20,000 bases of DNA from an uncultured virus (IMG/VR IMGVR_UViG_3300047554_000670) (lineage: Duplodnaviria; Heunggongvirae; Uroviricota; Caudoviricetes): the IMG/VR virus record IMGVR_UViG_3300047554_000670; one strand, 5' to 3'. The notes below the pieces were generated by a model. It made no database searches and was not told where the DNA came from. It saw only the letters and a list, made by a program, of their open reading frames with translations. The position numbers and the translations under genes are program-made. Positions 3,101-19,938 of the stretch are shown in pieces. The first letter of the stretch is position 1. Each line of letters starts with the position of its first letter.

Positions 3101-3327
3101 GGAAGCTCCAAGAAAAAGTGATTATACAGATACACCCCATTGAAGTCCCCACTAGTGAAGAGACTAAGGGACTTGAAATCAAAATCAACTACGGCTTTGA
3201 TGTCAAACTCAAACCACCAACGTTTTGGTGCTTGAGGAAATAAATTCAGTGACACAAGTAGCATCACTGATTTATCCGTTTCTGAAGCGGGACTAAAATC
3301 CCAGTTGAAATCAACCATGTTAATCAC
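3097..3327 (-). CDS. Hypothetical protein (76 aa)
   Basis: ORF track; GTGA overlap with the cysS stop and ATGA overlap downstream. Confidence 0.65.
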   Translation of the reverse strand: MINMVDFNWDFSPASETDKSVMLLVSLNLFPQAPKRWWFEFDIKAVVDFDFKSLSLFTSGDFNGVYLYNHFFLELP

Positions 3328-4598
3328 CTATCCTGAACTTCCACCCCTAATGCTAACAATTTCTGATGTATGAGGTCAGCTTCAGCCCAGTTCTTAGCTT
3401 TACGAGCTAAGTTTCGAGCCGAAATAAGTTGTAGTACATGCGAACTAAGTGCCTCATCTTCAATTGCCATAGCTCTTAACCCTAATACATCTGCCAAAAT
3501 CAACAGCGTAATGCTATTGCAAGGAGTTAAGTTCTTGGCTAACTCAAATAGAACTGCTAGAGCTTTGGCTGTATTAAGGTCACAGTCTAAAGCATCGTTG
3601 AATCGGGCAACAAAATAAAGGTCAAATTGACTATCTTCGGTTATATTCTCCTTAGCTTTAATCAAAGCTTTATTCAGAGATTTCCAACTATTTGATGCGG
3701 ATTCAAGAGCCTCCGTGGTAAATGCTAAAGGTTTACGGTAGTGAGCTTGAAGCACAAATAACCGTAGTGCCATGGGAGAAATACCCTGGAGGTCTAGCAA
3801 GTCTCTGATAGAGGTAAAGTTCCCCTGAGACTTAGACATCTTATCCCCATTGAGGGTTACAAATCCATTGTGGAGCCAAAACTGAGATAACATATGTCCC
3901 GTAACAGCCTCAGACTGTGCAATCTCATTCTCATGATGAGGAAATACGAGGTCCGCACCTCCACAATGAATATCGATACGGTCTCCTAAAGTATCTCGAA
4001 TCATGGCGGAGCATTCAATATGCCATCCAGGTCTTCCTGGACCCCATTTAGAGGGCCAGTTAGGTTCTTCGGGTTTTGCGCTCTTCCAAAGAACGAAATC
4101 ATTTTCTTTCGTTACCTCGATATTTCGTTTTGAAAGCTTACCATAGCCTTCAAACTTACTTATGTCAAAGTAAACCCCATCATCTTTAACTTCATAAGTG
4201 TATTCTTTCTGTTCTAGCTCATGAATTAGTCGTTTAATTCCATCAAGGGTATGAGTAACACGAGGGTAGGCATCAGCTTTCATAATGTTAAGCCTTTCCA
4301 TATCCTCAAAATATGCTTGGATGTATTTCTCCGCTATGTCCTCCATAAGTACATTTTCTTGTTTGGCCCGGTTGAGAATCTTGTCATCTATATCAGTGAA
4401 GTTCTGTACATACTTCACCTTATAACCTAACCAAAGAAGATATCTGCGTAGGGTGTCCCAGACAATATAGGAGCGGGCATGGCCAAGATGACAATAATCA
4501 TATACGGTTACACCACAGCAATATATACTAACTTGCTTTGGTGTAAGAGGTTGAAAGAGTTCTTCGCGACGTGTGAGGCTGTTGTAGAGGTATAACAT
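3324..4598 (-). CDS. cysS: Cysteinyl-tRNA synthetase (class I), cyanobacterial-like, shortened
   Basis: YCCGVTVYDYCHLGHAR (HIGH), NFTDIDDKI, GRPGWHIECSAM, DIHCGGADLVFPHHENE, KMSKS, and a C-terminal ARKAKNWAEAD anticodon helix. Confidence 0.97.
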   Translation of the reverse strand: MLYLYNSLTRREELFQPLTPKQVSIYCCGVTVYDYCHLGHARSYIVWDTLRRYLLWLGYKVKYVQNFTDIDDKILNRAKQENVLMEDIAEKYIQAYFEDMERLNIMKADAYPRVTHTLDGIKRLIHELEQKEYTYEVKDDGVYFDISKFEGYGKLSKRNIEVTKENDFVLWKSAKPEEPNWPSKWGPGRPGWHIECSAMIRDTLGDRIDIHCGGADLVFPHHENEIAQSEAVTGHMLSQFWLHNGFVTLNGDKMSKSQGNFTSIRDLLDLQGISPMALRLFVLQAHYRKPLAFTTEALESASNSWKSLNKALIKAKENITEDSQFDLYFVARFNDALDCDLNTAKALAVLFELAKNLTPCNSITLLILADVLGLRAMAIEDEALSSHVLQLISARNLARKAKNWAEADLIHQKLLALGVEVQDR

Positions 4599-6990: not shown

Positions 6991-7024
6991 AAAATAAAAC
7001 CCCTAAGATTTATATCCTAGGGGT
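6991..7024 (-). terminator. Intrinsic terminator
   Basis: Minus strand ACCCCTAGGA-TATAAA-TCTTAGGGGT followed by TTTATTTT. Confidence 0.65.
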
Positions 7025-7110: not shown

Positions 7111-7635
7111 TTATCTTTCTTCATCCCATTCTTCACACTGCAATGGTGTGGGGGATGTAACGACACACCCTTTATATAACTTAACTAAGGTATGTGTTCG
7201 GAAAAAAGCGGATTCAAACCACCCTTCCTGTACATATCCTGCCCGACCAACCGATGTGGTCCGGCATAATCTGAAATCATCAGTGACCTCCCCACTGAAG
7301 TCTGGAATTCTGTATGACAAATTCCCGTGTCCACGCCACTCCATTAACTTTTCCCAGCTTTTAGGAATAGGAGATGAAGAGTTATTTAAGTAAATCTCTA
7401 CAAGTTCTTTCCACAGGTGTTGGGAAAGATGATGATGACGAGCTTCTATAACAGACCCATCAACACTGAGTTCAATTTCCTTATCTTCATTAACGGAGAT
7501 TAAGAAACCAGGTAATACATAGTCGGCGGGTAGGAAACCCTCTGGGAAATTTTCAACCCCTAGTAGAATATCTTTCTCAATCTCATCTGCTTCCCACGAA
7601 AGGAGAGCTTCATCAGTGATAAGAATATTAACCAT
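7111..7635 (-). CDS. Hypothetical protein (likely start ATG 7635)
   Basis: ORF track 7111..7656; GAGG precedes ATG 7635. Confidence 0.75.
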   Translation of the reverse strand: MVNILITDEALLSWEADEIEKDILLGVENFPEGFLPADYVLPGFLISVNEDKEIELSVDGSVIEARHHHLSQHLWKELVEIYLNNSSSPIPKSWEKLMEWRGHGNLSYRIPDFSGEVTDDFRLCRTTSVGRAGYVQEGWFESAFFRTHTLVKLYKGCVVTSPTPLQCEEWDEER

Positions 7636-7663
7636 TATTAACCTCAAGATGAACAAAACAACT

Positions 7664-7730
7664 AAGTAGGGGCATAATTCCCTAGTATAGAAATAAGAAG
7701 GTTGAACTTATTTCTATAATTGGAAATCAT
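7664..7730 (-). repeat. Conserved intergenic stem-loop element, copy E1
   Basis: AAGTAGGGGCATAATTCCCTAG is identical to 11895-11916; 12-bp perfect inner stem TATAGAAATAAG/CTTATTTCTATA. Confidence 0.85.
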
Positions 7731-7741
7731 GACGAAAGAAA

Positions 7742-7945
7742 TTAAGGAAAGACTGATGTGCATTCAATAGCACCAGTTAAGACTACTCTCCACCCCTCCT
7801 TAATGAACTTCATACAGTCATTCTCTTGGATAGCTTTAGTTGTAGCTTCTTGTTCTGAGTCAGCTTTTATATTGTGGGAATTAATTAACTTGATGGTTAA
7901 GGTTTTATCCCAACATAAGGCTGTTGTAACTAAGTAGGTTTTCAT
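7742..7945 (-). CDS. Hypothetical protein (67 aa)
   Basis: ORF track; ATG start. Confidence 0.65.
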   Translation of the reverse strand: MKTYLVTTALCWDKTLTIKLINSHNIKADSEQEATTKAIQENDCMKFIKEGWRVVLTGAIECTSVFP

Positions 7946-7952
7946 AGTTATA

Positions 7953-8255
7953 GGGGGGGCGGAAACAAATATAAAGAAAAGATTAAGACCCCATAGAGGA
8001 TATAAGATATTAAGACCCTATATGAGGCTATAGGTTATTAAGACCATATAAGGAGGGTATAGCTATATTCCTATATGAAGGGGAGTATAGGCGGGTATGA
8101 AGGGGGGGGGTCCAGGCTGGGTAAAAATTTTATAAGTTTACCTTATACCATATGAGTAAGAAAATAAGAGTACCTTATGGGTAAGGGAATAAGAACACTT
8201 TATGTGTAAAGAAATAAGATAAACCTATGTAAAAGAAATAAAGTAGACCTATGCG
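7953..8255. repeat. Non-coding block with two degenerate tandem arrays and G-tracts
   Basis: ATTAAGACC at 7982, 8009 and 8037; TATG..AAG..AATAAG units starting at 8151, 8176, 8201 and 8226, with a further TATG at 8250; G7 at 7953 and G9 at 8102. Confidence 0.8.
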
Positions 8256-8294
8256 TCAAATCTAATCTATAGCTATATAGTAATATAAATAGAC

Positions 8295-8329
8295 AAAAAA
8301 ATACCCTAGAAGATAACTCCTAGGGTATT
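8295..8329 (-). terminator. Intrinsic terminator after the 550-aa ORF
   Basis: Minus strand AATACCCTAGGAG-TTAT-CTTCTAGGGTATT plus a run of T. Confidence 0.8.
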
Positions 8330-8362
8330 GGGTTTAAGTCTTGTTACGGTAGCAGGTTAAGG

Positions 8363-10015
8363 TTATAGCATCCCCCGTTTAAGCTTAAACTTCAAATCTT
8401 TAATCTGTTGTTTTGTTAGGTTATCAAGATCATAGCCTAACGAGATTAATTGCTGAGTTAATGGAGAATCAGATAGGGTACGGTCTTGTATTCTGGGTTG
8501 TTGCTGTATACGTCTTAAGGTTTCATCCTGGAAAGATTTAATCTTACTTTCCCCCTTTAACACCCCCTCCCAGATTTCTAGGGGAGTTCTACTATCCCCC
8601 GATAATTTACGGTACTCAGCTATATTATCGCTAGTGAGTATCGCTGGGGGTTGTAGTGTAATATATTCACCATCACAATAAGGGGATAAATAACTATCCC
8701 CATAGCGTAATCGTTTCCATTGTCCTGACAAATCAAGACCTAGAAAATGAGCTTGCATTATTTCACGGGTAAAGTGCGGGATACTGTATTTAGTACCCCC
8801 CAGGATTAGGTTACTTTCCTCTAATTCCTTTACTTTAACGGGCTTAGTTACTTTGTAATACAGCGTTACAAGTTTGCCCATATCTAAAGTTTTCCCTACT
8901 CCGAGGTTAGGATCTAAAGTAGGTTTTAATGGGATAGGGACTAACTTAGGCTGATCATTCTCAATACTTAACCGTGTATTGAGTACCGGGATACTTTGGT
9001 AAGTTTGGTTATTTGTATTCGTTAACTCCAAGTAAATTGTTGTGCCGGATACTGTAAGCCAGTAACTTAGACCTTGGAATGTTGGAGACAATTCTGGGAA
9101 TAACTCAGGATTGCTATATACCCGTGTTCCTACTTTCGCTCCTTTAGGTAAACCTTTACTTTTGAATTTTGCTTTAACTCCTACTTTATCTGGAGCATAC
9201 CCTAGTTTACCGGCTGGGGTTTTCTTACGGGTTTTGTTCTTTAGAGTAGAATATTTTTCTGGCTCAGGACAAACGGGGACGGCTATAGTTTTATGGTCAT
9301 TAGAAACAACCCAGGGAACTTCTGAGGTATAGCCTACTGTGTTTGTTAGCTGAGTATATAGCGCTATAGGGCACAATGAAAGATCATACTGGTAAATACT
9401 ATTGACATTTGCTGCCGCTGGTTCAGGGGATAACCCTACCAGGTTTTGTAATTTGTTACCCTGAATTTTTGCCCCTACCAGGGTTGTGGGTAAAGTATTC
9501 GCCCCATTATTGTATTCCTTTAGGTCAGTTCTACAGAAAACCTGTAGAATAAAACCCTTATCATATTTTTCGGAACCGCCATAATGGGAAAAGATCTGAT
9601 CACAAGACTCTGGATCCTCAATCATTTTATTGATAGGGACAGCTAAAATATTCCCACTAGCAGCTTGGAATAAGGGTATTGGATAGTCAGGGTAAGTATA
9701 AATATGCTGATAATCACTCTTATCTTCTGAAAACTTACGAGATACCCAAAGACCTTGGTTAAGACAGCGATAGAACAAAACTAAGGCTTCTAAACCTGTA
9801 ATCTTTTGTTTCTGAACTACTTTATTTTTTTTAGGTTTAGCGTTATCTTTTTTTTCTTCTGTCCCTAGCTTTTCTTCTAGGAAATTTTTCAGCTTAAAAC
9901 TAGGGGTAACATCGATTAACTCTATTCCATGATAGGCAATTTTGTTTAACGCATAAGGAGTAAAACCTAGTTTTTCTAAACCACGGTAACAGGGGAAGTA
10001 TTGGGTGATGGTCAT
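8363..10015 (-). CDS. Large hypothetical protein (550 aa, Lys/Pro-rich)
   Basis: Long ORF with ATG start followed by a terminator; no motif recognised. Confidence 0.9.
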   Translation of the reverse strand: MTITQYFPCYRGLEKLGFTPYALNKIAYHGIELIDVTPSFKLKNFLEEKLGTEEKKDNAKPKKNKVVQKQKITGLEALVLFYRCLNQGLWVSRKFSEDKSDYQHIYTYPDYPIPLFQAASGNILAVPINKMIEDPESCDQIFSHYGGSEKYDKGFILQVFCRTDLKEYNNGANTLPTTLVGAKIQGNKLQNLVGLSPEPAAANVNSIYQYDLSLCPIALYTQLTNTVGYTSEVPWVVSNDHKTIAVPVCPEPEKYSTLKNKTRKKTPAGKLGYAPDKVGVKAKFKSKGLPKGAKVGTRVYSNPELFPELSPTFQGLSYWLTVSGTTIYLELTNTNNQTYQSIPVLNTRLSIENDQPKLVPIPLKPTLDPNLGVGKTLDMGKLVTLYYKVTKPVKVKELEESNLILGGTKYSIPHFTREIMQAHFLGLDLSGQWKRLRYGDSYLSPYCDGEYITLQPPAILTSDNIAEYRKLSGDSRTPLEIWEGVLKGESKIKSFQDETLRRIQQQPRIQDRTLSDSPLTQQLISLGYDLDNLTKQQIKDLKFKLKRGML

Positions 10016-10054
10016 GATAAGTAATTAAGTGATTAAGTGATTGATAGGGTGAAC

Positions 10055-10080
10055 AAAAACCCCTAGTATAGGCTAGGGGT
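10055..10080 (-). terminator. Intrinsic terminator
   Basis: Minus strand ACCCCTAG-CCTATA-CTAGGGGT-TTTT, just after the stop of 10095..10994. Confidence 0.65.
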
Positions 10081-10094
10081 ATAAATTACATAGC

Positions 10095-10994
10095 TTAGCT
10101 AAAATCGGTCATTAGTTGTTTCATTGACCGTTTGAAGTTTGCCTCAACTTTCACTCCGGGGAGTAAGACTGATTTACGGGCTGTACCTGTAGCTCCCCCA
10201 CTAGCAATATAGTCCTGAAGTTTTTTACCCTCTAAGTTTTTAACTTTCCCATAGGACATATTGAGAGCATTAAAGACATCTTGCGTGAAAACCTGGGGAT
10301 TAAGGATCATCTTCTCGTGAAGACTTAGATCCTTAATGATTTTATCCTTTAAACCCGCTAAAACAGGATTTAGACCCGTTACTAAAGGGATACTTAAAAG
10401 AGTTTGATCCTCCTTAGATTGGATTAAGCGGAGAGCCATGATCAGATTCTTTTCTGACCACTCTAAAAATTGGGTGTAGGTTGTAGCATGACCTACCCCT
10501 AAAGGAATACTGTCGTTTGCGACATATACTATGTCTGGGTGATGGCTGAACAATAACAAGGATACTGTGGTATCTTTAGACAACTTATAGTTATCAATGA
10601 GTAACCATTGATCCTTCACTTTGTCATGCTTAAACTCAGTGATGATGGACTGCTTAGAGAATTCATTTTTGTAAGCAGTTAGGTCTTTGTATCCATAAAA
10701 TTCTAAGAATTTTACGGTAGGGTTAGGTACAGTTTGTCCTAAAGTTAAGATATCAAGGGATTGCAGGAAAGTCTTAACCTGGTCATTTGTATGGTCAGGA
10801 TTAAGGTCAATACTCAATTCTTGCGCAATAGCAAGCAAATTTTGATCCCGTTGTTCTTTAGGGGTTGTCGGGTCTTGTTCTTGCGTGTCAGTTTGTTCCG
10901 TTTGTTCCGTTTGTACTGTATCAGTTTGCACGATATCAGTTTGTTCCGTGGTTGTTTTGGGTGTTGCAGTTTTAGAGTTTTTAGCTGTGGCCAT
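10095..10994 (-). CDS. Hypothetical protein (299 aa) with low-complexity TEQTD-repeat N-terminus
   Basis: SD GGAG upstream; long ORF; repeated TEQ/QTD. Confidence 0.9.
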   Translation of the reverse strand: MATAKNSKTATPKTTTEQTDIVQTDTVQTEQTEQTDTQEQDPTTPKEQRDQNLLAIAQELSIDLNPDHTNDQVKTFLQSLDILTLGQTVPNPTVKFLEFYGYKDLTAYKNEFSKQSIITEFKHDKVKDQWLLIDNYKLSKDTTVSLLLFSHHPDIVYVANDSIPLGVGHATTYTQFLEWSEKNLIMALRLIQSKEDQTLLSIPLVTGLNPVLAGLKDKIIKDLSLHEKMILNPQVFTQDVFNALNMSYGKVKNLEGKKLQDYIASGGATGTARKSVLLPGVKVEANFKRSMKQLMTDFS

Positions 10995-11064
10995 GATAGG
11001 ACTCCAGAATAGGGTGATTGAACTAAAGACCTAACCCATAGAGGGTTATTCAGGATTTACAAAG

Positions 11065-11117
11065 TAATTCCCTAAGCTAGGGTATACAAATTAATATATA
11101 CCCTAGATTTGAGAATC
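11065..11117 (-). repeat. Conserved intergenic stem-loop element, copy E2
   Basis: AATTCCCTAAG-[CTAGGGTATA..TATACCCTAG]-ATTTGAGAATC abutting the stop codon at 11118. Confidence 0.85.
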
Positions 11118-11555
11118 TTAGTTATCTCCAATTAGATAAGAGAGAATCTCTAAGTTTAGTCCAAAATCTTTTAGACAATTTAGAAAATTCTCCTTAGTTA
11201 GTTTTTTCTCATCCCCTATATCACCTTTGTGGAAAATTTGGAAAATTTCTTTATAGGGTAGAAAAGAATGGTGACGATATGAGAAATAAAAACGGTTAAA
11301 GTCTACTTCTATCTTGCATGTCAATCCCTCGTAGAAAACATGCGAAATAGACTTACAATTACAGCATGTGATAGCCTTACAACCACGGCAATCATCATTA
11401 CCAAAAGTAACATGATAATCATAGTTGGAGGGACTTAGAAAACCACTATGTTTAGAACGGTTTTTCAATGCCATATATGCTTTAGCAAGTAAAGGATATA
11501 TGCTGGGGATGAAAGTATCATCTATTTTCATAACACAGTAAGGGATGAATGACAA
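11118..11555 (-). CDS. Hypothetical protein with Cys cluster (CRGC...CCNC)
   Basis: ORF track; start is TTG 11555 or ATG 11531. Confidence 0.75.
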   Translation of the reverse strand: MSFIPYCVMKIDDTFIPSIYPLLAKAYMALKNRSKHSGFLSPSNYDYHVTFGNDDCRGCKAITCCNCKSISHVFYEGLTCKIEVDFNRFYFSYRHHSFLPYKEIFQIFHKGDIGDEKKLTKENFLNCLKDFGLNLEILSYLIGDN

Positions 11556-11601
11556 AATTCCCTAAGCTACCCTAACAATTAATAGGGTAGATTTGAGAAT
11601 C
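11556..11601 (-). repeat. Conserved intergenic stem-loop element, copy E3
   Basis: AATTCCCTAAG-[CTACCCTA..TAGGGTAG]-ATTTGAGAATC fills the whole gap between two ORFs. Confidence 0.85.
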
Positions 11602-11868
11602 TTACATATTTTGGACTTCTAGGGCATTAACATACCCTAGATAGCAGCTATCCACAAATTGATTCCAACAATCCCAACCCTCCCAGTCTACTAAGAAATG
11701 CGCAGACTCACCCCAGCAAAAAGGCTGGTACGTAGATAAACAAATTGCATGAAGGGATAGACTAGGGCTTACATGAAGGGATAGAGTAGGATAGGGATCT
11801 TCAGGGTTAAAGATACCAAAGTTAATGACGGCAATAACTAGAAGACGCTCAAATTCTTGACGGTTCAT
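11602..11868 (-). CDS. Hypothetical protein (88 aa)
   Basis: ORF track; ATG start. Confidence 0.7.
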   Translation of the reverse strand: MNRQEFERLLVIAVINFGIFNPEDPYPTLSLHVSPSLSLHAICLSTYQPFCWGESAHFLVDWEGWDCWNQFVDSCYLGYVNALEVQNM

Positions 11869-11894
11869 AGGGTGATTCCAATGATTTTACTGCA

Positions 11895-11949
11895 AAGTAG
11901 GGGCATAATTCCCTAGACCAGAGAAAATTATCTCTGGTGTTGAGAATCA
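11895..11949 (-). repeat. Conserved intergenic stem-loop element, copy E4
   Basis: AAGTAGGGGCATAATTCCCTAG-[ACCAGAGA..TCTCTGGT]-GTTGAGAATCA next to the stop at 11950. Confidence 0.85.
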
Positions 11950-12198
11950 TTAGATATCGCGGGATAAAAGATTATCAATATAACCGTCAAGCCGATACAT
12001 GATAGGCTTGAAGATTACGGGTTCCTCAGAATTAGCTGTAACAGGACAACCCGTAAGGCGATCAACCATAATACCTACAGGAGTGATATATGGGTGACGT
12101 TCTGTATTAGGAAAACTGAGAACTAAGTCAACCCAGCCATCTTGACGCTGGATTAATTCAATCTTTTTACCGTTAAGGTTATAGGTCATAAAAACCAT
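11950..12198 (-). CDS. Hypothetical protein (82 aa)
   Basis: SD AGGAG upstream of the ATG. Confidence 0.75.
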   Translation of the reverse strand: MVFMTYNLNGKKIELIQRQDGWVDLVLSFPNTERHPYITPVGIMVDRLTGCPVTANSEEPVIFKPIMYRLDGYIDNLLSRDI

Positions 12199-12328
12199 GA
12201 TGTTTGCTCCTAAGATAGTAGGGTTAAGATGTACTTTGCCTGTTCAATTGTCAACTGGGGAAACAGTCTAATTAGCTGGTTTACCGTTGTAGGTCTAAAC
12301 GGTAGACCCTTGATAGAAATCGCTATCT

Positions 12329-12490
12329 CTAGCATTTGACCTCCAACATAGTGGGATCATACAGTCCAGACCGGATAGATAGATTACCTATCCACAAATG
12401 AAAACCCGGATATAATCCTACACTGGAAGACTTAAATTGAATTGGCCCTAATGTAGCAAAAACAGTACCAGATGAGTAGACTTTAAGCAT
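12329..12490 (-). CDS. Small hypothetical protein (likely start ATG 12490)
   Basis: GGAG SD before ATG 12490; the upstream part of ORF 12329..12559 is a heptamer repeat. Confidence 0.55.
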   Translation of the reverse strand: MLKVYSSGTVFATLGPIQFKSSSVGLYPGFHLWIGNLSIRSGLYDPTMLEVKC

Positions 12491-12501
12491 TAGATTGCTC
12501 C

Positions 12502-12572
12502 AAAGATGAAAGACTAAAGATGAAAGATGAAACGAGATGGGATGAAAGACGAAAGACAAAAGATGAAAGATA
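12502..12572. repeat. Heptanucleotide tandem repeat (AAAGATG-like), STRR-style
   Basis: aaagatg aaagact aaagatg aaagatg ... aaagacg aaagaca aaagatg aaagata. Confidence 0.85.
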
Positions 12573-12582
12573 TCAATTAAGG

Positions 12583-12629
12583 CTTGATATCGTATAGCCT
12601 AACAATACGATAGGCTATAAGTTATCAAG
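12583..12629 (-). repeat. Intergenic stem-loop E5: same architecture, different sequence
   Basis: Minus strand: stop, CTTGATA-ACT-TATAGCCTA-loop-TAGGCTATA-CGA-TATCAAG. Confidence 0.7.
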
Positions 12630-12920
12630 TTAGTCAGGATACTCTAGGATTAGGTCTTCTAAGTCATCTAAGGGATCAGAATCTAGATATTGCTTTACTA
12701 GGGCTAAGTTGTTTTGAGCCTCAGTAAGCTTGTCCAATATAATATTTTCCGGTTTTCTGTTTTTTCGCGTGTACAGAATATCTATCATCCCCTGATACTT
12801 ACTAACCTCCTGACTGAAAAACTCAACTAAGACACTGTAAAGGGTTTCTGAATTAACTGGAGGGATATAATCCCTAATTTGAAAAGTAGAGTCTTGAGAC
12901 GATACCTTAACCCTGCCCAT
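12630..12920 (-). CDS. Hypothetical protein (96 aa)
   Basis: ORF track; ATG start. Confidence 0.7.
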   Translation of the reverse strand: MGRVKVSSQDSTFQIRDYIPPVNSETLYSVLVEFFSQEVSKYQGMIDILYTRKNRKPENIILDKLTEAQNNLALVKQYLDSDPLDDLEDLILEYPD

Positions 12921-12992: not shown

Positions 12993-13382
12993 TTAACGTA
13001 AACCCATTAACTTAACGATTTCATCTCTCAATTCTTCCAATAAGAGAGTATCACGGTCACTCGGATTTAGGTCACTCTGGGTAAAAAACTGGGAATATAT
13101 TCTACTTAAGCAAAATCGTACATAAAAACCCTCCTCTCCATATATGTGGAGGTCAATAAACCAAGAATCCCCCTGGGTTGTGTTGTAGTGTGATATATGA
13201 AGACCTAAGCCCACACCGTAGGAATACCATTTATTGGGGTAGTAGTGAGATGAATCATTGATTGATTTAAGATCTTCAGTTAGATGAAAAGCTAGGGTTC
13301 TAATATATTTTGGAGATCCCGTCTTTTTGATGAAAATCTGTTGAATTAGATCCTGTATAGTTTGGGTTGTTTGGGTTGTCAT
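12993..13382 (-). CDS. Hypothetical protein (129 aa)
   Basis: ORF track; GAGGG SD-like sequence upstream. Confidence 0.75.
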   Translation of the reverse strand: MTTQTTQTIQDLIQQIFIKKTGSPKYIRTLAFHLTEDLKSINDSSHYYPNKWYSYGVGLGLHISHYNTTQGDSWFIDLHIYGEEGFYVRFCLSRIYSQFFTQSDLNPSDRDTLLLEELRDEIVKLMGLR

Positions 13383-13471
13383 AAGGTTTGTATCCCTCTA
13401 CTTGTAGACAGTACCCTAGACACAATGGACAATGGACTAGGGTAATGTATAAAGTTAAGGGTTAAACTTTA

Positions 13472-13666: not shown

Positions 13667-13803
13667 ACTTAAAGACCAGTCGAAAGGTTGCCCTAAACCA
13701 AGAAAATTAATTTCAACCCACTCTAGCGCAACAGTTACGTCAAGACTAAAACCGTTAGCTTGTTTAGTGTAGGGTAAGGTTTTAACCCTACCCTATACAT
13801 TTA

Positions 13804-17603: not shown

Positions 17604-18202
17604 ATGTAACTTTTTCTAACATAGTGTTCTCTAATTTATACAAACAGTTGTACAAAAAACGTTACATATCAAAAAATGTTGCAGTTAAAAAATCATACTA
17701 GGGAATATTCATAGTTTGTAGACCTGCAACCGTTTTTGATCAAAAATGTTTCATCTATAGCTAAAATATTCCAAAAAACGTTGCATCCAGAATATGACAA
17801 AAAACGTTGTACCTTATATATTTCAAAAAAGGTTGTACCTAGAATAATCTAGAAAACGTTGCACTTTATATGCTAGATTTATAAAAATGACCTTAAATAC
17901 CGTGATAAGTTCTACTCCAATTGTACATTTTAGCTGCAAAAAAAATTTGCACAATTTCTCTTTCTATAGCAATAAATCCCAAAAAAATTTTGCAGGTATA
18001 TACTTTTTCGTCAAGATATCTTGAATCTATCTTAGTGTGTAACTTATTTGTGTGTAACTTTTTTTAGTAACGTCTTCTAGTGTTTATACAAACAGTTATA
18101 CAGAAAATGTTACTCTCCCTGATAATTTCTTAGTTTATTCATTTTTCATATTTTTATGACTAAAAATTTAAGTCTCATTTAATTATACAAAAAATGTTAC
18201 AT
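17604..18202. repeat. AT-rich iteron-like region, candidate replication origin
   Basis: More than 12 copies of (C)AAAAAA(C/T/G)GTT(G/A)(C/T)A in both orientations; four in tandem at an exact 26-bp period (17772, 17798, 17824, 17850). Confidence 0.75.
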
Positions 18203-18243: not shown

Positions 18244-19938
18244 ATGTTTTATTCTGATTGTTTTAATTCTATCCCCGAAGGTATTGTTAATAAAAAGGTA
18301 TGTGGTTGTGGCATCACATCCTATGCATTAGAGAACGCATCTCCAATAATTCTCTGTGTTCCTACAGTAGAGATTATTCGCAACAAACTCTCTCAATACC
18401 CCAACGAAAGAAGAAAAGAAGAAATCCTTGGCATATATGAAGGAAAGAACAAACACAGTTATCAGATTGAATCCTACCTAGATAAGGTAGATGTTCCTAA
18501 AATCCTAGTTACTTATGATAGTCTCCACTACCTAACTCCCTATCTTAATATGTTTCATTTGGTGATTGATGAATTCAGCGAATTACTTGATTGTTATTCC
18601 TTTCGTTCTAATGCCATTAACAGTCTAGTAGAAATTATTAAAGCTAAACGTTATCAAAAGTTATCTTTAGTATCCGCAACACCTATATCCTCTGAATACC
18701 TCCCTGCTTATTTACAGGAGCTTCCTTATACAGAACTAGATTGGAAAGAAGATGATTTAATCAAAGTTAATGTTGTACCGATTCAAACTTCTCGTACAGT
18801 AACTTCAGTTCTAAATATTATTAAAAACTATAAGCGTGGTCTTGTTAAAGATTCTAATCAAGCATTTTTCTTTGTTAATTCCTTAAGCTTAATCACTAGT
18901 ATCTTAGAAAAGTCAGACCTTACTACTAATGATGTTCATGTTGTCTGTAGTAATACAAGAGCAAATAAAAATAGACTTGATTACTTCTCCATCTCAACTA
19001 CAACAGATGTAAATAATACTCCTCGGATGTTTAACTTCTTTACCTCTACAGCATTCAAAGGATGTGATATTTACAGTGAGTCAGGTATGAGTTATGTAAT
19101 TAGTAACAATACCAATATAAATACACTACTTACAATTGACACAGATATCTACCAGATTGCAGGACGTATCAGAACTCCCCATAACCCTCATCGTCACACC
19201 TTATACCATATTCATAATCAAAATCCACTTGCCTTAGCTAAGGAAGATGCTGATAACTTAAGAGACTCAATTAAACAAGAAACTTTAAGCTTAATAGCTG
19301 CATTCGATAAAGCCTCTCCAAAAGAACGGAAAGACCTTATTAATATTTACCTTAAAAGTAATATTGATAAGACCACATATAGTCTTATTGATAAAGAAAA
19401 TACAAAACTTATCTATGATGAATTAAAAGAATTATTAGATAAAAGAGTGTATGAGACCGTGATTAAGGTTTATCAATCAGGGTTGTCTTTAATAAAAACC
19501 TATGAGGATAATAACTACATTGTAAAAGAAACCATAAAGTCTAATGTTATTAGAGATGATTTCTCTACGGTGTTTAAGCTCTATTACCAAAATCCTAATT
19601 GTAATAATGAAGATATCTTTACTAGATTTCCCTTAATAGAAGAAGCTTGTACTAAATTAGGTTTGGAAAGATGTAAGACTCTTGCCTTTAGAAAAGATAG
19701 AATTACAGAAGAACTTTCTTTCGTCAATAACCAAGAAAGTATTAAGAACCTCTTGAGAAATAGGTTGAAAAAAGAATTCTATTCCTTAGCTGATATCAAA
19801 CTTCTACTAGGTAAGACCTATAAAGAACTTGGTATTAATAAAAAAGCTAAGGCTAAAGATATAGAGTTATTCTTACCCCTATCCGAAACAACACTTCAGA
19901 TTAAAGGTAAAAGAGTTAAAGGTTATAGAATTAAATAA
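18244..19938 (+). CDS. SF2 (DEAD/DEAH-like) helicase-domain protein, putative origin-binding/replication initiator
   Basis: Motif I-like KVCGCGITS, Ia CVPTVEII, II VIDEFS, III SATP, IV FFVNS, V TSTAFKGCD, VI QIAGRIR; basic C-terminal domain. Confidence 0.8.
   Translation: MFYSDCFNSIPEGIVNKKVCGCGITSYALENASPIILCVPTVEIIRNKLSQYPNERRKEEILGIYEGKNKHSYQIESYLDKVDVPKILVTYDSLHYLTPYLNMFHLVIDEFSELLDCYSFRSNAINSLVEIIKAKRYQKLSLVSATPISSEYLPAYLQELPYTELDWKEDDLIKVNVVPIQTSRTVTSVLNIIKNYKRGLVKDSNQAFFFVNSLSLITSILEKSDLTTNDVHVVCSNTRANKNRLDYFSISTTTDVNNTPRMFNFFTSTAFKGCDIYSESGMSYVISNNTNINTLLTIDTDIYQIAGRIRTPHNPHRHTLYHIHNQNPLALAKEDADNLRDSIKQETLSLIAAFDKASPKERKDLINIYLKSNIDKTTYSLIDKENTKLIYDELKELLDKRVYETVIKVYQSGLSLIKTYEDNNYIVKETIKSNVIRDDFSTVFKLYYQNPNCNNEDIFTRFPLIEEACTKLGLERCKTLAFRKDRITEELSFVNNQESIKNLLRNRLKKEFYSLADIKLLLGKTYKELGINKKAKAKDIELFLPLSETTLQIKGKRVKGYRIK

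Follow-up and report, generated by a model that had tools for sequence, protein, structure and literature searches.

Five RNA hairpins, here termed E1 to E5, lie between small genes on the minus strand of a 20,000-nucleotide (nt) stretch of DNA from an uncultured virus (IMG/VR record IMGVR_UViG_3300047554_000670), and this whole stretch is referred to below as the window. The hairpins constitute a real family (n = 5) that is strand-specific, covarying and anchored on stop codons, and action of the element at the RNA level, on the coding strand, is very probable. With regard to function, the best-supported reading, to which we give even chances, is that the elements are RNase III-type intercistronic signals, by which a read-through message would be both processed and stabilised. 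Understood in this way, they would represent a new sequence family of T7/SP82-type intercistronic signals, whose distinctive traits are a fixed signature of two mismatches, A.A and pyrimidine.C (Y.C), and the inclusion of one member of unrelated sequence.

Structure and conservation of the five hairpins

Reading of the minus strand bore out the five hairpins that a first-pass annotation of this DNA had placed there. They are listed below together with the sequences at their 3′ sides, with bit scores from a covariance model (model R1) built from E1-E4.

7676..7728, minus strand: E1 core hairpin, with a basal stem GAUUUCC/GGGAAUU of 7 bp, A.A mismatch, A-U pair, U.C mismatch, 12-bp upper stem and 9-nt loop; 71.3 bits
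7664..7675, minus strand: E1 3′ tail, which with 7676-7685 makes up a 22-nt stretch identical to one at E4
11066..11117, minus strand: E2 hairpin, with a basal stem GAUUCUC/GGGAAUU, A.A mismatch, two A-U pairs, U.C mismatch and 12-bp upper stem; 74.3 bits
11556..11601, minus strand: E3 hairpin, with flanks as in E2 and an 8-bp upper stem carrying the flip of GGG/CCC to CCC/GGG; 63.4 bits
11907..11948, minus strand: E4 hairpin, with a basal stem GAUUCUC/GGGAAUU, A.A mismatch, A-U pair, C.C mismatch and 8-bp upper stem; 62.7 bits
11895..11906, minus strand: E4 3′ tail, identical to the E1 tail
12583..12629, minus strand: E5 hairpin, with a basal stem CUUGAUA/UAUCAAG of 7 bp, A.A mismatch, C-G pair, U.C mismatch, 9-bp upper stem and 9-nt loop
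12569..12576, minus strand: UUGAUAUC, a perfect 8-nt alternative partner of the E5 3′ arm (12584-12591) and a near-repeat of the E5 5′ arm

The overall build is a basal stem of 7-10 bp, an A.A mismatch, one or two pairs, a Y.C mismatch and an upper stem of 8-12 bp, which gives helices of 17-22 pairs, or 20-25 stacked positions if the mismatches are counted, corresponding to approximately two helical turns. What had been annotated as internal loops of 3-4 nt, and appears at first as a 3x3 or 4x4 loop, is in all five elements an A.A mismatch by the basal stem, one or two Watson-Crick pairs and a Y.C mismatch by the upper stem (U.C in four elements, C.C in one), and both mismatches interrupt the helix in every case. 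The annotated 7-bp basal stem stands as a core that is extended to 9-10 bp in E1 (7673-7731), E3 (11553-11604) and E4 (11905-11950); similarly, the hairpins of E1 and E4 are present within the ranges first given for them, which also take in the 12-nt 3′ tails outside the helix.

All five elements are intercistronic and lie on the mRNA strand. Four of them start within 1 nt of a stop codon, as had been claimed: E2 and E5 directly adjoin theirs (11118-11120 and 12630-12632), E3 also has an offset of 0 nt, and E4 begins 1 nt past the stop codon at 11950-11952. The offset of E1 is 13 nt, or 10 nt to its extended stem. Stop-codon bases are paired within the extended stem in E3 and E4, the extended stem of E3 pairing the stop codon itself. 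From the element to the next start codon the distances are 40, 71, 24, 38 and 92 nt for E1 to E5, respectively.

E1-E4 have a common sequence frame, GATTYYC...TAGGGAATT, which encloses unrelated, fully paired upper stems. As a pattern, GATTYYC-N15-45-GGGAATT occurs four times in the window, always on the minus strand, compared with 0.05 expected, and four occurrences were reached by none of 200 shuffles. Since the two 7-mers by themselves show no or mild enrichment, it is the paired arrangement that stands out. GAUUYYCAA and UAGGGAAUU are invariant in E1-E4, and the upper stems vary freely. Scanning of the window with model R1 returned these four copies only (62-74 bits; 23-29 bits for their reverse strands), the next match being E5 at 14.7 bits (E 0.33). 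No Rfam family matched the elements in a cmscan search with E values up to 1, which gave two chance-level matches elsewhere in the window.

Folded as RNA, the minus strands of E1-E5 reach -22.0, -24.5, -21.7, -21.7 and -19.5 kcal/mol, respectively (z -4.9 to -6.8), whereas the plus strands of E1-E4 reach just -13.8 to -15.5 kcal/mol. This advantage of 6-9 kcal/mol for the coding strand, which the annotation had anticipated from a basal stem GAUUYYC/GGGAAUU that depends on G-U pairs, arises because the basal stem of E1-E4 uses G.U pairs. There are ten such pairs in E1-E4, two of them in each conserved basal stem, and none in E5, for which the RNA fold of the plus strand is just as good. Under DNA parameters both strands fold alike (-10.3 versus -10.0 in E1). 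The ten G.U pairs, the RNA strand bias and the equal DNA folds are what argue for action at the RNA level.

Covariation, which had been named as a check, is clear in the alignment of E1-E4: 90.6% of cells are paired, 11 of the 22 pairs are changed on both sides, and none of 500 shuffled alignments reached any of five covariation measures. Pairing falls to 37-53% when partner columns are slid by 1-3. The GGG/CCC flip between E2 and E3, annotated as a compensatory change, is real and appears in the alignment as an inversion at pairs 19-43, 20-42 and 21-41. Pairing in the elements is under selection, judging from these two-sided changes and from the basal stem of E5, which differs at most positions yet pairs over 7 bp.

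The place of E5 was assessed by shape, as the annotated five-member family holds for E5 with respect to build and not with respect to sequence. A five-member covariance model was not used because MAFFT misaligned E5 with E1-E4; instead, a script applied a descriptor without sequence (7 pairs with G.U allowed; A.A; 1-2 pairs; Y.C; at least 8 pairs; a loop of at most 12). In the window this descriptor finds exactly E1-E5, all on the minus strand, and there were no matches on the plus strand or in 60 dinucleotide shuffles. It had no match in 1.36 Mb of natural DNA (357 loci, T7 among them), nor in a further 1.02 Mb (80 viral loci anchored on cysteinyl-tRNA synthetase, CysRS), where a relaxed form accepting any two mismatches gave three. 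Independently of how the descriptor was designed, E5 retains the 7-bp length of an otherwise unrelated basal stem and the same mismatches in the same orientation. E5 belongs to the family by architecture, not by sequence.

Only one dispersed DNA repeat is tied to the elements, namely the identical 22 nt on the 3′ side of both E1 and E4, which lie 4.2 kb from each other. One explanation that builds on this stretch, and which we regard as most improbable, is that the conserved 3′ half is a promoter of a phage-specific RNA polymerase that overlaps the hairpin by chance. The exact identity does run 12 nt beyond the helix, and promoters of phage single-subunit polymerases, as established for T7, are conserved, approximately 23 bp long and located near gene starts. 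However, the stretch is common to only two of the five elements, the tails of E2, E3 and E5 being unrelated; no RNA polymerase was recognised among the 30 window open reading frames (ORFs) scanned; and the covariation of the stems would be left unexplained.

A candidate signal for message processing

Processing of mRNA, in what was assumed to be an early region, was one of two functions offered by the annotation, and it gains from the strand-specific G.U pairs, the length of two turns, the intercistronic position, the lack of a U-tract and the T7-like build; cleavage itself is a prediction. From the short spacers, the lack of promoter-like sites and the presence of terminators at unit ends only, we infer that the genes concerned are transcribed as one unit. 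With spacers of 24, 38 and 40 nt (E3, E4 and E1), the downstream genes must be read through. No sigma-70-like promoter was found on the minus strand in 7636-7741 or 10995-11949, with the caveat that the consensus of the host may differ. The terminators are the following.

10059..10080, minus strand: canonical intrinsic terminator (stem and T-run) closing the gene run E5-E4-E3-E2-299-aa gene
8300..8329, minus strand: canonical intrinsic terminator after the 550-aa ORFan gene, from the terminator scan
6999..7024, minus strand: canonical intrinsic terminator after the gene following E1, from the terminator scan
1127-1100, minus strand: fourth canonical terminator, from the terminator scan

The hairpins themselves were rejected as intrinsic terminators: none of the five has at least five T in the 8 nt past the helix (1-4 T were seen), and the four canonical ones are found at other places on this strand. 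Genes begin 7 nt (at 6992) and 44 nt (at 10015) past the terminators 7024-6999 and 10080-10059, with neither room for nor sign of a promoter, so that downstream expression seems to need terminator read-through. It is on this point that a role of the hairpins in transcription control could be based, either as partial terminators or pause sites lacking a U-tract or as nut/put-like antitermination RNAs that would allow passage of the downstream terminators. We hold such a role to be very unlikely. Some control of read-through is needed where genes lie right behind canonical terminators (e.g., at 6992), the hairpins are stable (-19.5 to -24.5 kcal/mol), and weak terminator-like sub-hairpins are present within E1 and E2. 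On the other side, a U-tract is lacking in all five while textbook terminators are used in the same genome, three consecutive elements within 900 nt would be redundant for antitermination, and AU-rich basal stems make poor terminator stems.

Processing by an RNase III-type enzyme would fit the helix dimensions. According to one published account, which covers the biochemistry of the T7 signal R1.1, Escherichia coli RNase III substrates typically span two helical turns, and internal loops or bulges can restrict the enzyme to one phosphodiester, which leaves a protective 3′ hairpin (PMC1540722). In the proposed course of events, an RNase III-type, double-strand-specific endoribonuclease would recognise the shape of the element, and the two mismatches would limit the cut to one strand. 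The upstream message would then keep a protective 3′ hairpin, whereas the freed 3′ arm would pair anew with a short complementary sequence that lies downstream, at the newly made 5′ end. The outcome would be segmental stability and differential expression of adjacent cistrons, as at T7 and SP82 early sites.

For comparison, seven intergenic regions of T7 were folded, which we take to be RNase III sites. RNase III signals of the early and late polycistronic mRNAs of T7 (R0.3, R0.5, R1, R1.1, R1.3, R4.7 and others) were reportedly described by Dunn and Studier in 1983. In six of the seven regions an internal loop separates a lower from an upper stem, and a common motif surrounds the upper stem; the region 18546-18607 gives no stable hairpin. 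The elements resemble these signals in being intercistronic, in lying on the mRNA strand, in the order of lower stem, internal loop, upper stem and small loop, in a length of approximately two turns and in forming a sequence family within the genome. They differ in that T7 conserves the upper stem and loop flanks and varies the lower stem, whereas here the basal stem is conserved and the upper one free. In addition, the loop here consists of single A.A and Y.C mismatches around one or two pairs, and the stop codon serves as the anchor of the helix. Sequence likeness is also lacking, T7 being among the loci without a descriptor match, and cleavage here is predicted. SP82-type early sites are repeated, sequence-conserved hairpins between early phage genes that are cut by host RNase III; the elements share with them the repeated, sequence-conserved intergenic hairpin, a likeness drawn here from description only.

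Partners for the postulated refolding are present downstream of the elements. In E1, after loss of the 5′ arm, CCCUA of the tail (7667-7671) can pair with UAGGG (7680-7684), and in E4 the tail sequence CCCUA (11898-11902) is the alternative partner of UAGGG (11911-11915). AGGGA can pair with UCCCU in E3, six pairs are possible in E2, and E5 can form a perfect 8-bp helix with UUGAUAUC at -7.9 kcal/mol (z -3.6). True support for refolding is confined to E5.

A number of points weigh against the RNase III reading. The refolded helices of E1-E4 have only 5-6 bp, and the corresponding fragments do not exceed shuffled sequences in stability (z -0.3 to -1.3). The three sequencing runs that carry this sequence are all DNA, so that co-transcription and cleavage are inferred. 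RNase III does not need the strong conservation of the basal stem and UAGGGAAUU that is seen in E1-E4. Within E1 and E2, two weak 5-bp sub-hairpins were picked up by the terminator scan. As for the comparison with T7, the feature tables returned for NC_001604 and V01146 list no RNase III features, and the identity of the sites follows the description attributed to Dunn and Studier. The descriptor was written after all five elements had been seen, which makes its five of five matches true by construction and leaves the empty background as its independent part. Finally, the analysis covers five copies in 20 kb of a genome of approximately 136 kb.

The conserved basal stem and UAGGGAAUU could point to a sequence-specific factor. 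It is possible, albeit rather unlikely in our judgement, that the RNA elements serve a factor other than RNase III, namely a dedicated and perhaps phage-encoded RNA-binding protein or endoribonuclease that would read the conserved basal stem and the A.A and Y.C mismatches and for which they would be an operator or a cutting site, or that they form a device coupling or insulating the translation of adjacent cistrons. The latter is conceivable because a terminating ribosome must melt the 5′ arm. Such a factor would account for invariant GAUUYYCAA and UAGGGAAUU next to free upper stems and for a mismatch signature fixed in all five elements, and a translational role would suit a helix that abuts or contains the stop codon in four of the five. 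Moreover, short upstream ORFs (uORFs) have their starts within the 3′ arms of E1 and E4 and run as far as the start codon that follows: the AUG in the E1 tail starts a uORF of 15 codons ending 4 nt beyond the AUG of the next gene, and the AUG in the E4 tail starts one of 13 codons whose UGA overlaps the AUG of the next gene. However, uORFs are found at only two of the five elements, no RNA-binding or nuclease domain was detected among the 30 ORFs, and E5 keeps the same shape with a wholly different basal-stem sequence, which argues for recognition of shape and not of sequence. The two short ORFs (7633-7675 and 11866-11906, minus strand) both begin with MPLL..., and they could give translational coupling where they occur.

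A bolder version, which we think distinctly unlikely, combines cleavage and shape recognition in a signal defined by shape and not by sequence: a two-state, 'cut and refold' punctuation that a dedicated factor would recognise and that would be linked to the termination of translation. With the stop codon in the helix, the ribosome would open the helix, and the freed 3′ arm would switch to its built-in downstream partner; the ends of the elements might additionally serve as joints for ORFan swaps.

Recombination, repeats and the search for relatives

The second function offered by the annotation was that of an attC-like site family for gene shuffling. Related to this is the broader idea that the elements are DNA-level recombination joints for single-gene ORFan cassettes, either attC-like (folded single-stranded DNA and a recombinase) or similar to promoter early stem loops (PeSLs), at which homologous exchange would occur. 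The genes most relevant to this idea are the two that are bounded exactly by elements.

11118..11531, minus strand: single ORFan gene between E3 and E2, with in-frame codon usage as in long genes
11602..11868, minus strand: single ORFan gene between E4 and E3, from the ORF scan and codon usage

Integron attC sites have ends with the consensus RYYYAAC ... GTTRRRY. The elements are like them in that conserved ends of 7 bp and an unpaired spacer enclose a paired centre that varies, in that they follow promoterless single genes and in that they are strand-specific. The ends here read GATTYYC ... GGGAATT in E1-E4 and CTTGATA ... TATCAAG in E5, unlike the core consensus, and the helices contain symmetric mismatches only, with no single-base bulges. 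The strand bias appears under RNA energetics only, and no integrase is found in the window. The attC-like interpretation is not supported by the defining features of such sites, as core-type ends, extrahelical bases and a strand bias as single-stranded DNA are lacking, and the suggested search for a recombinase returned none among the 30 ORFs of this 20-kb part of a genome of approximately 136 kb.

PeSLs, known from T4-type phages, combine a strong sigma-70 promoter with a terminator stem-loop; according to two sources, they are located beside ORFans and bring about shuffling (PMC2839356, PMC4122927). Both they and the elements are repeated intergenic stem-loop motifs beside small ORFan genes, on one strand, and possible crossover points. 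By contrast, PeSLs are composites of approximately 100 bp that consist of a sigma-70 promoter and a terminator stem-loop with a G/C tract, whereas the elements have no promoter-like site, spacers of 24-92 nt, AU-rich stems and no U-tract.

Taken in either form, we find the cassette interpretation improbable. Conserved ends and a variable paired centre right after cassette-sized ORFan genes are what such joints would look like, and the 22-nt identity of E1 and E4 resembles a conversion patch. Nevertheless, attC core sequences and extrahelical bases are missing, the single DNA strands fold alike, and G.U pairs are meaningful for RNA only. Neither an integrase nor another recombinase was recognised among the 30 ORFs of this 20-kb part of the genome, and the four spacers after E1-E4 carry no sigma-70-like minus-strand promoter, 24-40 nt being too short for a PeSL promoter and leader. 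In addition, 7-22 nt of shared sequence is a poor substrate for homologous recombination.

Two further classes of mobile or repeated elements were considered. Repetitive extragenic palindromes (REPs) are short imperfect palindromes that occur in hundreds of copies together with a REP-associated tyrosine transposase (RAYT), a Y1 transposase. Like REPs and bacterial interspersed mosaic elements in enterobacterial operons, the elements are intercistronic hairpins past a stop codon that are able to shield the upstream mRNA from 3′ exonucleases; they differ in having five copies in 20 kb (four by sequence) and a longer, two-part helix. The REP reading was rejected on account of the few copies and because no RAYT or transposase domain was found among the 30 window ORFs. 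A miniature inverted-repeat transposable element was rejected as well, as consistent target-site duplications are missing and the upper stems bear no relation to one another.

The genes beside the elements were also compared with one another. Paralogy was rejected, the flanking ORFs not being paralogues, and their codon usage, taken in frame, resembles that of the window's long genes, except that two tiny ORFs located between E5 and E4 are only weakly positive. Since the flanking genes are not paralogues and have coding-like codon usage, the hairpins have spread independently of genes.

Searches for copies outside the window were made in several databases. The exact 22-mer of E1 and E4 had no match in IMG/VR, and the E2/E3-type pattern had none in JGI metagenomes. 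Looser patterns found at least 115 stretches in IMG/VR, at least 120 in GTDB and at least 120 in JGI metagenomes, each with a single match; these were set aside as chance matches, as all 355 loci among the matches listed score at most 32.9 bits with model R1 (compared with 62-74 bits for E1-E4). The covariance-model scan for copies proposed with the annotation has thus yielded the four in the window and no convincing copy among the outside loci scored.

Relatives of the neighbouring proteins were equally rare. In IMG/VR, no relatives were found of the 550-aa ORFan or of a 564-aa helicase-like protein. A search anchored on CysRS gave 80 IMG/VR loci (best identity 50-53%), which share no other gene with the window and contain no hairpin by the descriptor (all 80 loci) or by model R1 (the 23 of 80 searched). 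For the 550-aa and 299-aa proteins by the elements, a word-index search of 5.8 billion protein clusters found only the proteins themselves, on a contig of record of 136,124 bases. A full HMMER search with the 550-aa protein revealed two distant homologues (P0003 and P0004; 32-33% identity), which occur on Logan contigs only (44,669 and 3,643 bases, P0003 being on the 44.7-kb one) and were not reached in IMG/VR.

Genomic surroundings and biological meaning

The window has a G+C content of 37% and is densely filled with small genes, the majority of which are on the minus strand. In its gene-dense part, 12.6% is intergenic, and a hairpin of the E type is present in 5 of 16 spacers of at least 45 nt. 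A Pfam scan of 30 window ORFs recognised a shortened cysteinyl-tRNA synthetase (3324-4598, minus strand) and a few weak domain matches, and PHROGs matches were obtained for 5 of the 30. In our interpretation, the window belongs to an uncultured, phage-like genome from freshwater. The sequence is carried by three DNA runs, which come from two studies of freshwater metagenomes and two of which may represent the source sample; since the metagenome contigs all belong to the same strain, with no variants in the hairpins, they provide no population covariation. No near relatives of the window DNA were found in phage records (by DNA or by the 550-aa protein) or in plasmids, and HIP1, a cyanobacterial marker, has no copies in the window.

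The phage-borne CysRS is shortened to 424 aa (Pfam E 2e-122). Full-length matches to it, with 50-53% identity, lie on four IMG/VR contigs of 36-37% G+C that have no other gene in common with the window.

Several spacers have features of their own. Between E5 and the next small gene, the minus strand of 12502-12571 contains approximately ten copies of a pyrimidine-rich heptamer, which resembles UCUUUCA when read on the mRNA strand. Within the 5′ leader this array could enhance translation or offer a platform for protein binding. Upstream of E5, the spacers at 13383-13471 and 13667-13803 (minus strand) have long hairpins of other sequence and build, with no T-runs, so that the part from 13.8 to 11 kb is punctuated throughout by hairpins, in contrast to that from 0 to 7 kb. 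In one contig of run X2, position 13121 is joined to 14541 with 1419 bases skipped, the shorter side being 23 letters; this junction may be a deletion variant or a repeat artefact.

The region 7946-8362 is a non-coding region of 417 nt with a terminator on one side and, on the other, the 67-aa gene that precedes E1. It contains a 25-bp tandem array (approximately 4 copies) and a 28-bp array (2.7 copies), at 8145-8253 and 7982-8054, as well as two long C-runs, one of them near 8100, and in one metagenome contig the homopolymer at 8101 is longer by one letter. The region may be regulatory, a promoter or an origin. Tandem repeats of 26/52 bp (approximately 3 copies) are also present at 17765-17871, in the divergent spacer between minus-strand genes and the plus-strand gene of the 564-aa helicase-like protein, and look like iterons or operators.

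A 9-mer, TCACCCTAT, has three exact copies on the minus strand (10044-10052, 11009-11017 and 11867-11875), all of which lie just upstream of or on start codons (genes starting at 10015, 10994 and 11868). If one mismatch is allowed, there are 13 matches compared with 6.6 expected, a number reached by 2 of 200 shuffles. This is possibly a start-region or promoter motif.

If the five hairpins are processing signals, T7-style punctuation of messages would operate also in a large, otherwise unrecognisable freshwater phage, and the signals would give a handle on gene expression in a phage whose scanned proteins mostly match no family. The A.A/Y.C signature, which persists in the unrelated sequence of E5, would then state, in concrete and testable form, what it is that the processing enzyme recognises.

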